Shown: in pieces, positions 16,208 through 19,300 of the stretch
How positions within the stretch are numbered: the first letter of the stretch is position 1
Layout: every line of letters begins with the position of its first letter
Virus record (IMG/VR): IMGVR_UViG_3300020187_001966
DNA from: a virus
Lineage: Duplodnaviria; Caudoviricetes
Strand: one strand, 5' to 3'
DNA: 64,000 bases
The notes under the pieces: generated by a model
What the model saw: only the letters and a program-made list of their open reading frames with translations
What the model was told of the DNA's origin: nothing
Databases searched by the model: none
Position numbers and translations under genes: made by a program

Positions 16208-17368
16208 ATGGCAGACAACCTAATGGAAAATTGGGGCGCTACAAAAGACGCCCTCACAGATGGTTTATCTGGAACAAAGAAGCAAGTAATGGAATCAGTA
16301 CTTGAGAACACAAAACGCTACATCGCAGAATCTGCAACAGCGGGTGCTACTCAAGCAGGTAACATTGCTACACTAAACAAAGTGATTCTTCCAGTAATCA
16401 GACGTGTTATGCCAACTGTTATTGCTAACGAAATCGTTGGTGTACAGCCTATGACAGGCCCAGTTGGACAAATTCATACTCTACGTGTGAGATATGCAGA
16501 AACTTTTGACTCAGCAACAGCTGGTGACGAAGCTCTAAGCCCATTTGCAATCGCAACTGGATACTCAGGTAATGGAACTACAAACCGTGCAGATGCTACA
16601 GCATCGCAAGAAGGTTTACCTGGTAAGAAAATGTCAATTCAAGTGTTAAAACAAACAGTTGAAGCGAAAACACGTAAACTATCAGCACGTTGGACATTCG
16701 AAGCGGCACAAGACGCCAATTCAATGCACGGCCTAGACGTTGAAGCAGAAATCATGCAAGCACTTGCTCAAGAGATTACTGCTGAGATCGACCAAGAGAT
16801 CATTACATCTCTTACATCACTAGCTGGTACAGCTACTGACACATACGACCAAAGTGGCGTAAGTGGTACAGCAACATTTGTAGGTGACGAGCATGCAGCA
16901 CTAGCAGTTCTAATCAACAAAAATGCTAACACAATTGCAGCACGTACACGTCGTGGCGCAGGTAACTGGGCAGTTGTTTCTCCAACAGTACTAACAGTAC
17001 TACAGAGTGCGACTACATCAGCATTTGCACGTACAACAGAAGGTCCTTTTGAAGCACCTACAAACACAAAATTCGTTGGTACACTAAACGGTACTATGAG
17101 AATTTATGTAAACCAGTACGCAGCAAACGACAACGTACTAGTAGGATACAAAGGCGCAACAGAGACAGACGCAGCAGCGTTCTATTGCCCATACATCCCG
17201 CTAATGTCAAGTGGCACAGTGCTTGATCCAGACTCATTCGAGCCAGTGGTATCATTCATGACACGTTACGGATATGTAGAACTAAGCAACCAAGCATCAT
17301 CGCTTGGTAACGCAGCAGACTACCTATCAGCAATCGCAGTTACATCAAACAAACTAGCATTTGCTTAA
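16208..17368 (+). CDS. gp23: Major capsid protein (T4 gp23)
   Basis: VGVQPMTGPVGQIHTLR, AKTRKLSARWTFEAAQD, EIDQEI and FYCPYIPL; probable gp21 cleavage site at YIAE/S. Confidence 0.97.
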   Translation: MADNLMENWGATKDALTDGLSGTKKQVMESVLENTKRYIAESATAGATQAGNIATLNKVILPVIRRVMPTVIANEIVGVQPMTGPVGQIHTLRVRYAETFDSATAGDEALSPFAIATGYSGNGTTNRADATASQEGLPGKKMSIQVLKQTVEAKTRKLSARWTFEAAQDANSMHGLDVEAEIMQALAQEITAEIDQEIITSLTSLAGTATDTYDQSGVSGTATFVGDEHAALAVLINKNANTIAARTRRGAGNWAVVSPTVLTVLQSATTSAFARTTEGPFEAPTNTKFVGTLNGTMRIYVNQYAANDNVLVGYKGATETDAAAFYCPYIPLMSSGTVLDPDSFEPVVSFMTRYGYVELSNQASSLGNAADYLSAIAVTSNKLAFA

Positions 17369-17394
17369 TAGCAATTTTAGTTGATAAAATAAAG

Positions 17395-17420
17395 ATAGGC
17401 GCTACGGCGCCTATTTTTTT
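17395..17420 (+). terminator. Intrinsic terminator after the major capsid gene
   Basis: ATAGGCGC-TACG-GCGCCTAT followed by a T run. Confidence 0.9.
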
Positions 17421-17441
17421 GACTTTTTTTTTAAAAAAGTG

Positions 17442-17470
17442 TTGACATTGGTGTCTACATATGCTATATT
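17442..17470 (+). promoter_or_regulatory. Sigma70-type promoter of the RNA island
   Basis: TTGACA, 17 nt, TATATT with TG-n extension. Confidence 0.8.
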
Positions 17471-17499
17471 ATATACATAGCTTGGGAGATATCCCAGAG

Positions 17500-17683
17500 T
17501 TAGATAGTGCAAGGAATGGCGGTCCGTAGAGGTCGTAACTTGGTTCATAGCTGTAGTGGCAATGCAAGAGCGTAGAGATACGAAGTTGTATTTTTAGACA
17601 TAACTGTTTAATATGAAGTTCCCGGATTTGAGCGTGGCTCTACACAAGGGTTGTTGGTATTCACAGAGTCCAACCTATCACTT
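17500..17683 (+). ncRNA. Structured ncRNA, manA RNA motif-like
   Basis: ORF-free and downstream of a promoter. Closing stem GATAG(17503)/CTATC(17675). The 5' GTGCAAGGAA...GAG...AACTTG and 3' AGTCC.ACCTAT pattern resembles the manA motif as I recall it; not computed. Confidence 0.5.
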
Positions 17684-17685
17684 TA

Positions 17686-17693
17686 TATAAATA
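17686..17693 (+). promoter_or_regulatory. Late promoter TATAAATA
   Basis: Exact consensus upstream of the 19-codon ORF. Confidence 0.55.
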
Positions 17694-17720
17694 ATAACGT
17701 AAGAAATAAGGAATTTTAAC

Positions 17721-17780
17721 ATGTCAAAAACTACAGTACATATTACTTACTGGCCACCATGCGAATGGGGAATGTTTTGA
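17721..17780 (+). CDS. 19-aa small ORF MSKTTVHITYWPPCEWGMF
   Basis: TAAGGA SD 8 nt upstream of the ATG; followed by a terminator. Confidence 0.5.
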   Translation: MSKTTVHITYWPPCEWGMF

Positions 17781-17807
17781 TGTGACTTTTTAAAAGTTAT
17801 TTTATAC

Positions 17808-17842
17808 AAGCCCTTAGCATTAATTTGTTGGGGGCTTTTTTT
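17808..17842 (+). terminator. Intrinsic terminator after the small ORF
   Basis: AAGCCCTTAGCA-loop-TGTTGGGGGCTT followed by a T run. Confidence 0.7.
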
Positions 17843-17845
17843 ATG

Positions 17846-17917
17846 AACACACTATGTCCTACTGCAATAGGAAGCGTTGCAGCGCATAGATCCCGAAAGG
17901 GTCGAAGTTAGTGTGTT
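17846..17917 (+). ncRNA. Compact multi-stem RNA element with complementary loops
   Basis: AACACAC/GTGTGTT closing stem, TCCTA-CTGCAA-TAGGA hairpin, downstream TTGCAG complementary to that loop, and CCC-GAAA-GGG hairpin. Confidence 0.5.
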
Positions 17918-17928
17918 TTTAAAAAAAT

Positions 17929-18002
17929 GAGGGTGTAGTGAAATGGTATCACGCTGGTCTCCAAAACCAGAAGCAGGAGTTCGATTCTCCTCACCTTTGC
18001 CA
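17929..18002 (+). tRNA. trnW: tRNA-Trp (CCA)
   Basis: Cloverleaf with anticodon arm CTGGT-CTCCAAA-ACCAG, T arm AGGAG-TTCGATT-CTCCT, and encoded CCA end. Confidence 0.93.
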
Positions 18003-18008
18003 AATAAT

Positions 18009-18085
18009 TCTACCTTAGCTCAGTAGGTTAGAGCGCCTGATTGTGGATCAGGAGGTCTCTGGTTCGATTCCAGAAGGTAGGACCA
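18009..18085 (+). tRNA. trnH: tRNA-His (GTG), no G-1, discriminator A73
   Basis: Anticodon arm CCTGA-TTGTGGA-TCAGG, T arm TCTGG-TTCGATT-CCAGA, acceptor TCTACCT/AGGTAGG, then A-CCA. Confidence 0.93.
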
Positions 18086-18101
18086 ATTTTATCTTTACTG
18101 C

Positions 18102-18109
18102 TATAAATA
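18102..18109 (+). promoter_or_regulatory. Late promoter TATAAATA
   Basis: Exact consensus upstream of the first fibre gene. Confidence 0.7.
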
Positions 18110-18130
18110 GTATTAACATGGAGATAAGAT

Positions 18131-19300
18131 ATGAGCACCACAAAATATAAACAGGATTTAGACGTTACTGGAAACATAACCTTATCCGGAAATGTAACAG
18201 CAGACGGAAACGTAATATTAGGTGATGCTGATACAGATAGCATTACACTAAATGCTGACATAACAAGTAACATAGTACCAGATGTCACTAACACATATGA
18301 TTTAGGTGCTACTGGTAAAAACTGGAAAGACTTGTTTATAGCTAATGATATTACTGTTGGTAACAATATCGTTGCTCTACAAGTAGCTACTCTTAGTGAT
18401 GTAACAGTCGGAGCTGATTTAAGTGTTGCAGGTGATGCTGACATTACTGGAAACTTAGATGTTACAGGTAATATCACAAGTGCCGCATCAGGAACACCAA
18501 CAGTAACTAGTTCAACAGATATTAATTTACAAGCAGGCACAGGTGCCGCTGATCGTGTTGAAGTTACACAATCTCCTTTCAAAGTTGCTAGTTTTACTAC
18601 AGCACAACGTGATGCGAAAACTAGTGAAAATGGCGACGTGATTTACAATACTACAACTGCTCAACTAGAATGTTATCAGGACAGTAGCTGGTCAGCTTTG
18701 AGAATAAATGAATCAGAGATTGCACTTGGTAAAGACGCAGGTAAAACAAGTCAAGGCGCAGGCTCAGTAGCAGTTGGGTATGAAGCAGGCAATACAGGTC
18801 AAGGCGCAAATGCAATAGCAATTGGTGAAAAAGCAGGTTATGCAAACCAAGCCGCAAACTCGATTGTAATAAACGCAACTGGTACAGAAGTATACAGCTT
18901 TGGAAGTGGTCTAGTAATTACACCAATTAGAAGTGCAAGTGGTACAACTACGTTGATGTATGATGCTTCGACAGGAGAAATTACACATACAGCAACACCA
19001 GCACAACAAACTATGATAGGAAGTGTGCAACAAATTAGTGGCCCTGGAGCAATTGACGTAACATCATACATTACTGAAATTACAACAACTGGCGCAGATG
19101 CCTACACACTTGCAGATGGTGTAGCAGGACAAATAAAAATAATTAGTATGATAGTAGATGGCGGTGACGCAACAATTACTCCGACTACATTTGCTACTGG
19201 AACGACAATTACAATGGCTGATGTAAACGATAACATAACATTATTATATGGTGCCAATGGTTGGGTGAATACCGCAAACCAAGGCTCAATTATAGCATAA
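18131..19300 (+). CDS. Virion fibre/decoration protein with YadA-head-like repeats
   Basis: Thr/Gly-rich beta repeats; IALGKDAG...SVAVGYEAG...AIAIGEKAG. Confidence 0.6.
   Translation: MSTTKYKQDLDVTGNITLSGNVTADGNVILGDADTDSITLNADITSNIVPDVTNTYDLGATGKNWKDLFIANDITVGNNIVALQVATLSDVTVGADLSVAGDADITGNLDVTGNITSAASGTPTVTSSTDINLQAGTGAADRVEVTQSPFKVASFTTAQRDAKTSENGDVIYNTTTAQLECYQDSSWSALRINESEIALGKDAGKTSQGAGSVAVGYEAGNTGQGANAIAIGEKAGYANQAANSIVINATGTEVYSFGSGLVITPIRSASGTTTLMYDASTGEITHTATPAQQTMIGSVQQISGPGAIDVTSYITEITTTGADAYTLADGVAGQIKIISMIVDGGDATITPTTFATGTTITMADVNDNITLLYGANGWVNTANQGSIIA

Follow-up and report, generated by a model that had tools for sequence, protein, structure and literature searches.

What molecule, if any, is encoded by the 72 nt at positions 17846-17917 of IMG/VR record IMGVR_UViG_3300020187_001966, directly upstream of two tRNA genes of a Caudoviricetes phage? 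A preliminary description of the window, by which we mean the entire 64,000-nt stretch of DNA analyzed, had recognized an unnamed RNA fold at this site, connected it with maturation of the adjacent tRNAs and offered a self-cleaving ribozyme, a ligand-binding aptamer or a tRNA mimic as its possible nature. We followed up this proposal by searching for homologues, assessing covariation, comparing genomic contexts and screening the element against models of known RNA families.

Genomic context of the element

A gene-free stretch of 760 nt separates the major capsid gene from a gene of 389 codons and contains the element. Features in and around this stretch are the following:

16208-17368: major capsid gene, assigned as a PHROG major head protein
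17442-17470: sigma-70-like promoter (TTGACA, 17 nt, TATATT)
17482-17684: manA-like RNA (RF01745; 40.6 bits, E 2e-9, below the Rfam cut-off of 55.2)
17721-17780, + strand: 19-codon ORF with two Trp codons, member of a conserved unit of ORF, terminator, element and tRNA-Trp
17808-17843, + strand: terminator-like hairpin and U-run directly 5' of the element, conserved in loci L096-L099
17846-17917, + strand: the element
17918-17928, + strand: A/U-rich leader of 11 nt between the closing stem of the element and the 5' end of tRNA-Trp, the latter being the expected RNase P site
17929-18002, + strand: tRNA-Trp (CCA anticodon), identified by ARAGORN and Rfam (67 bits)
18009-18085, + strand: tRNA-His (GTG), identified by ARAGORN and Rfam
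18131: start of the 389-codon gene

The preliminary description had placed the fold after a terminator and 11 nt before tRNA-Trp, in agreement with the hairpin and U-run preceding it and with the tRNA-Trp start at 17929.

Several observations concern the neighboring features rather than the element itself. The ~200-nt manA-like RNA 3' of the capsid gene is conserved at the DNA level in many related contigs, and in locus L053 (5260-5573) it is followed directly by tRNA-Gly without the spacer module. The 19-codon ORF ends in W-P-P-x-x-W-G-M-F, with both Trp codons kept in relatives, and its copy in L096 (1850-2030) is preceded by a promoter-like site of its own (TTGACA, 17 nt, TATATT). The layout of small ORF, terminator and tRNA-Trp suggests a leader peptide whose Trp codons attenuate read-through into the phage tRNA-Trp. 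L096, a giant-phage contig, features an array of 13 tRNAs (615-2273) that is broken by a small protein gene (~1450-1640) and by the ORF-terminator-element unit. In L014 (6877-6986), a phage tRNA-Trp is immediately followed, at the contig end, by two glutamine riboswitch aptamers in tandem (RF01739, 61 and 66 bits).

Homologues in uncultured marine phages

Pattern scans of IMG/VR and metagenomes, conducted with the stems left free, identified four close variants of the element. Three of these share the layout of the window, comprising small ORF, terminator, element, a gap of 10-12 nt and tRNA-Trp. At all loci outside of tmRNA genes, including L096-L099, the gene 3' of the element was tRNA-Trp; the second tRNA is variable, being His in the window and Pro, Lys or Met in relatives. 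A loose 18-base pattern applied to metagenomes returned mostly chance matches and was combined with a stem filter. At least nine metagenome contigs that passed this filter belong to the ORF-terminator-element-tRNA-Trp type, all of them with one of the four known variants.

The fourth variant (L095/L181, 105 bits) resides in a different setting, inside a phage alpha-type permuted tmRNA gene (RF01849, 100.7 bits), where it fills the spacer that separates the CCA of the acceptor piece from the 5' end of the coding piece. We derived a covariance model from the four close variants; run on the fetched loci, it detected a much more divergent copy, L226 (46.4 bits, E 4e-8), at the same spacer position in another phage tmRNA gene.

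All copies originate from uncultured marine phage contigs, and window DNA recurs in marine metagenomes from several studies. IMG/VR records of the window type are only 14-17% complete at 50-71 kb, pointing to very large genomes; no tmRNA was detected in the portion of these contigs that is available. Further searches were negative within their respective scopes. The exact 29-nt core had no match in IMG/VR. Searches of GenBank phages with the window, L095 and L226 versions retrieved no copy but just tRNA or tmRNA parts and chance words (E ~3-9), and a scan of genome contigs for the combination of CCA, CUGCA and UGCAG gave four chance matches and no bacterial copy. Likewise, the element was not found among 80 loci with related capsid genes and 14 loci with the downstream gene.

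The region also appears in RNA libraries. In one study, contigs from two runs extend continuously over 17300-17951, a range that starts in the capsid gene, includes the element and reaches into tRNA-Trp. The commonest element variant is represented by one RNA-library contig of that study. In two other studies, RNA-library contigs span just 17493-17770, comprising the manA-like RNA and the small ORF. These contigs specify neither ends nor strand nor level and may result from DNA carry-over, and no weight attaches to a portion that they leave uncovered; they are, therefore, no evidence of a discrete, accumulated element RNA.

Covariation supports a four-way junction

On the + strand, 17846-17917 forms a four-way junction in which three hairpins (H1, H2 and H3) are joined to a closing stem of 9 bp (P1). 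This cloverleaf is the minimum free energy structure (-23.2 kcal/mol), with a z-score of -2.76 against shuffles that is modest if taken alone. Its parts are as follows:

17846-17854, + strand: 5' strand of P1, paired with 17909-17917; 100% of cells paired, four pairs changed on both sides
17857-17872, + strand: hairpin H1, with a 5-bp stem (17857-17861/17868-17872) and loop L1, CUGCAA (17862-17867)
17874-17885, + strand: hairpin H2, with a 3-bp stem (17874-17876/17883-17885) and loop L2, UUGCAG (17877-17882)
17889-17903, + strand: hairpin H3, with a 5-bp stem (17889-17893/17899-17903) and a 5-nt loop, CGAAA; 95.8% of cells paired
17904-17908, + strand: junction J3/1, GAAGU, unpaired and conserved
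17909-17917, + strand: 3' strand of P1, partner of 17846-17854
17855-17856 (UG), 17873 (A) and 17886-17888 (AUA), + strand: remaining junctions, unpaired

We assessed covariation in five distinct natural sequences, four of which are ~90% alike, using an alignment (A2) fitted to the covariance model. Standard pairs were present in 98.6% of pair cells, and 11 pairs were changed on both sides across the five versions. None of 500 shuffles reached the observed values for pairing and both-side change, and sliding the 3' partners by 1-3 columns reduced pairing to 34-47%.

Compensation extends over individual hairpins. H1 is paired in 100% of cells, with both-side changes in four of its five pairs and U-A, U-G and C-G alternating at one position. 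H2, also 100% paired, varies at each of its three pairs (GCG/CGC, GUU/AAC, GUU/AAU and GUG/CAC). Conservation of single-stranded positions accompanies this variability: the CUGCA core of L1 is invariant, and GAAGU in J3/1 is identical in the four close variants, retained as AAG in L226 and present as GAAAGU in L299. The latter locus carries a relative that keeps L2, the junctions, P1 and an H3 of other sequence, and it is devoid of H1 and L1. Ten cells of the alignment are G-U pairs, for which the complementary strand would have A-C mismatches. Selection has thus acted on the RNA of the + strand, which is co-oriented with the tRNAs. Supported chiefly by comparative evidence, the fold is a genuine, strand-specific and conserved structured RNA.

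This structure retains much of the pairing scheme proposed initially. The closing stem described there is present (17846-17852 with 17911-17917) and extends to 9 bp, and the hairpin with the 6-nt loop CUGCAA corresponds to H1. An inner UAUG/CAUA stem did not hold up, as it forms in 85% of cells and shows no compensatory changes; its bases fit better as a 2-bp extension of P1 together with the covarying 3-bp H2. As for the suggested CCC-GAAA-GGG hairpin, a third hairpin followed by GAAGU does exist at this place, but the CCC/GGG register is found in 71% of cells, whereas the 5-bp stem with a 5-nt loop fits all variants.

Complementary loops in H1 and H2

The hexamer UUGCAG, noted previously as an exact complement of the CUGCAA loop, is indeed present at 17877-17882 and constitutes L2. 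Exact complementarity of L1 and L2 over 6 nt is seen in every version that carries both. In L226, the sixth loop pair is swapped from A-U to U-A (CUGCAU with AUGCAG), which is supportive rather than decisive because it is a single event and depends on how an extra L226 loop base is placed in the alignment. The computed energy of the L1:L2 duplex is -6.1 to -6.9 kcal/mol. H2 in isolation was calculated at -1.5, +2.1 and -0.2 kcal/mol in three versions, with the value of +2.1 belonging to the commonest variant. Since compensatory changes keep this hairpin although it is marginal or unstable alone, a tertiary or intermolecular contact may hold it in place.

Two ways of using the complementarity would be compatible with these data. 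In an alternative fold, L1 and L2 form an ordinary stem and H1 and H2 are melted. This fold is nearly isoenergetic with the cloverleaf, the computed energies being -19.0 versus -21.6 kcal/mol for the window and -18.2 versus -18.1 kcal/mol for the commonest variant. A full contact within one molecule that leaves H1 and H2 intact seems precluded by geometric reasoning: fully paired 6-nt loops would stack coaxially on their stems, which would put the bases of H1 and H2 ~14 bp apart, whereas the hairpins are joined by a 1-nt linker. The options left by this reasoning would be pairing between molecules or the alternative fold.

Some cargos of related loci deviate from this arrangement. L302, L339 and L340 contain CUGCA and UGCAG in a layout that would permit an ordinary pseudoknot inside a single molecule, and L2 may have a role not needing L1, since L299 keeps L2 in the absence of H1 and L1. 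Both L299 and the L302 group speak against the loop contact being needed universally. As a separate idea, we considered whether the loops imitate the terminal part of the tmRNA tag or base-pair with it. UUGCAG occurs in the tag end of L095, and the matching word is absent from the L226 tag; this candidate was dropped.

A stem-closed slot shared with tmRNA spacers

We compared the window to the spacers, or intervening sequences (IVSs), of phage tmRNA genes on a larger scale. References for circularly permuted two-piece tmRNA genes are Keiler et al. 2000 and Sharkady & Williams 2004, as cited in PMC9004378, and the two-piece form is common in marine phages (PMC9004378). In the tmRNA database paper, the IVS is described simply as sequence absent from the mature RNA, and only unusual contents, such as a tRNA gene or a repeat element, are noted within it (PMC11915505). 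Within the literature searched, there was no mention of a conserved four-way-junction cargo in a tmRNA IVS.

We fetched 120 phage loci with a conserved tmRNA acceptor piece and extracted their IVSs, which yielded 80 distinct phage alpha-type sequences of 5-266 nt. Both halves of a conserved closing-stem motif with A/U-rich flanks are present in 38 of the 80, the 3' flank ending just before the GGGG of the coding piece. The content between the motif halves is hypervariable, ranging from bare 25-30-nt hairpins to folded RNAs of 60-130 nt and longer inserts. Several IVSs (L287, L301, L304 and others) were hit by the covariance model via P1 alone. When 20 other cargo-bearing IVSs were compared to Rfam, the matches were to tmRNA and tRNA only.

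Beyond the element, the cargos showed two recurring properties. The longest IVSs (for example, L241, L229, L310 and L289, in the set L219-L338) contain ATG-started stretches that are putative mini-genes. The 7-mer GUAAGUC recurs in six otherwise different cargos (L302/L339/L340, L306, L223, L308, L266 and L289), with a longer common core shared by L306 and L223, and the cargos that bear it may represent a second cargo RNA family.

P1 of the window and its flanks fit the phage IVS closing-stem motif almost letter for letter, and an equivalent of the 11-nt leader precedes the tmRNA coding piece in L095 and L226. Outside tmRNA genes, the motif occurred in the fetched loci solely in tRNA-Trp leaders of the window type. 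We therefore regard the element as a cargo RNA in a stem-closed slot. The likeness to permuted tmRNA IVSs (RF01849, RF04321) consists of the closing stem and flanks, and the homologues L095/L181 and L226 occupy the exact IVS position. The window differs in that its slot is flanked by the terminator and tRNA-Trp; there is no tmRNA in the 64 kb and, hence, no tmRNA IVS position. Slot and cargo are, thus, present in two precursor contexts, each directly 5' of an RNase P site.

The diversity of cargos raises the question of whether the element has a role of its own. It might be a passive spacer, that is, a compact, nuclease-resistant plug or folding insulator that prevents a neighboring tRNA or tRNA-like domain from folding incorrectly and, in the case of tmRNA, keeps its two pieces together, with the excised RNA being functionless and the loop complementarity serving just internal stability through the alternative stem. 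IVSs of 5-266 nt with unrelated cargo imply that no particular cargo is needed for tmRNA maturation, and both the near-isoenergetic nested fold and the L299 relative, which lacks H1 and L1, are in line with such a role. It would not account for loops and junction bases that remain invariant while four stems covary, in two genomic contexts and with the divergent L226 included; moreover, many IVSs make do with simple hairpins of 25-30 nt. We consider a passive spacer somewhat unlikely.

Comparison with known RNA classes

At gathering thresholds, Rfam 15 matched only the two tRNAs in the window and nothing on the element. With E values up to 10 permitted in 17700-18150, no tRNA, ribozyme or riboswitch model was placed on it, and the sole overlap of any kind was a 51-nt minus-strand match to Chlorobi-1 with 11.7 bits, which is noise. 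ARAGORN called tRNA-Trp and tRNA-His only. Rfam had been named beforehand as the check on a known identity; as no family matches, the element belongs to an uncatalogued RNA family. In its general part, the preliminary reading of an unnamed structured RNA connected with tRNA maturation is upheld by the covariation, the lack of an Rfam match and the homologues in tmRNA spacers. Its three specific versions fared worse, with no match to ribozyme, riboswitch or tRNA models.

Regarding the first of these, a new class of self-cleaving ribozyme could cleave the precursor beside the tRNA, or between the two pieces of tmRNA, without requiring host nucleases. A parallel would be the pistol ribozyme (RF02679), in which a short hairpin with a 6-nt loop complementary to a downstream hexamer is combined with a second hairpin and a closing stem. 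The size of the element, its conserved junction bases and its loop fully complementary to a downstream hexamer would resemble the pistol pseudoknot, and the IVS position demands an endonucleolytic cut. However, the element differs from pistol in strand order, conserved pistol nucleotides are not evident and the Rfam model was unmatched. The same applied at E up to 10 to hammerhead, twister, twister-sister, hatchet, HDV-like and hairpin ribozyme models, which agrees with an earlier by-eye assessment that the hammerhead, twister and HDV consensuses do not fit. Maturation is already accounted for by RNase P and the usual 3' trimming, many IVSs contain a short hairpin only and the G-U step before P1 is not kept in L226. 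A self-cleaving activity is, in our estimate, very improbable. Because RNase P alone can account for tRNA release, the element is more likely to be released than to act as the releaser.

A ligand-binding aptamer or riboswitch would instead govern processing or read-through into the tRNAs. Related phages do place riboswitch-class RNAs beside tRNAs, as with the glutamine riboswitches of L014 and the manA-like RNA upstream in the window, and two near-isoenergetic folds would suit a switch. The resemblance to manA RNA (RF01745) and the glutamine riboswitch (RF01739) is one of genomic neighborhood by tRNA genes; their folds are unrelated to that of the element, which matches neither model nor any other Rfam aptamer. 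In addition, the element is positioned 3' of the terminator without overlapping it, a tRNA rather than a regulated ORF lies downstream and the tmRNA copies sit in a spacer without an expression platform. We judge ligand sensing very improbable.

Lastly, the cloverleaf topology, a length similar to that of tRNA (RF00005) and the location in a tRNA cluster might point to a decayed or reduced tRNA, or to a mimic that engages tRNA-binding enzymes or tRNA-targeting host defenses. As in tRNA, the first and second helices are followed by connectors of 2 nt and 1 nt. The element is nevertheless missed by ARAGORN and the Rfam tRNA model; it has no 7-nt anticodon loop, T-loop, D-loop GG or 3' CCA, and a 5-nt linker separates H3 from P1. 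We view a tRNA origin or mimicry as very improbable.

Proposed release of the element as cargo RNA

The explanation that we favor, with an assessment slightly on the probable side, is that the element is a cargo freed by tRNA processing and that its loop pairing is functional. Release is probably performed by tRNA-processing enzymes because the element sits either 5' of tRNA-Trp or within the tmRNA spacer that is cut out. The element would then be an autonomous, compact RNA module carried in the slot that forms the IVS of phage alpha-type tmRNA; in the window, slot and cargo would lie within the read-through segment between terminator and tRNA-Trp. Transcription past the terminator would generate a precursor of element and tRNAs, and RNase P cleavage at 17928/17929, the 5' end of tRNA-Trp, would free the 3' side of the element. 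For the copies in tmRNA genes, the 5' side of the element would be set free when the CCA end is matured. Both cuts are deduced from established maturation routes. The predicted product is a small RNA of ~75-85 nt with its ends protected by P1.

A comparable fate is known for RNAs of another phage. Species 1 and 2 of the phage T4 tRNA cluster are small, stable non-tRNA RNAs that are co-transcribed with tRNAs and matured by the tRNA-processing machinery, and they are not known to have a function. The parallel is one of description only, as the T4 species are larger and derive from a coliphage, whereas the element occurs in marine giant phages.

Once released, the CUGCAA and UUGCAG loops may pair in one of two ways, either by joining two molecules hand in hand to a dimer or by switching between the cloverleaf and the fold with the L1:L2 stem. 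Pairing between molecules has a model in the pRNA of phage phi29, an RNA of ~120-170 nt that is part of the packaging motor and in which two mutually complementary loops interact through 4 bp to give defined oligomers. The similarity lies in complementary loops placed for pairing between molecules, and by this analogy the element may form oligomers as well. In a symmetric dimer, H1-kiss-H2' and H2-kiss-H1' would each stack to 14 bp. At its most elaborate, the element might be an excised functional small RNA that forms a loop-paired symmetric dimer with two parallel 28-bp stacks of P1-H1-kiss-H2'-H3' and that giant marine phages shuttle, in the form of a cassette, between tmRNA spacers and tRNA leaders. 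This detailed version is speculative and, as a whole, unlikely. If the dimer were real, it would be a natural RNA-only assembly made by the tRNA-processing machinery. Conversely, the cargo could be a neutral passenger, since the slot holds very varied cargo.

Implications for giant marine phages

Among the structured RNAs found in clusters with tRNA genes of giant marine phages, the element would be an uncatalogued addition, a four-way junction of very small size. Through the shared slot, it would also connect the 'throw-away' spacer of two-piece tmRNA with the leader of a tRNA, two contexts that have been regarded as unrelated. Such a connection suggests that the slot serves as a portable cassette, from which RNase P and 3'-end maturation release cargo RNAs whose ends are defined. 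Should the loops pair intermolecularly, the element would offer a minimal, naturally occurring model for RNA self-assembly and would lend itself readily to structure determination.
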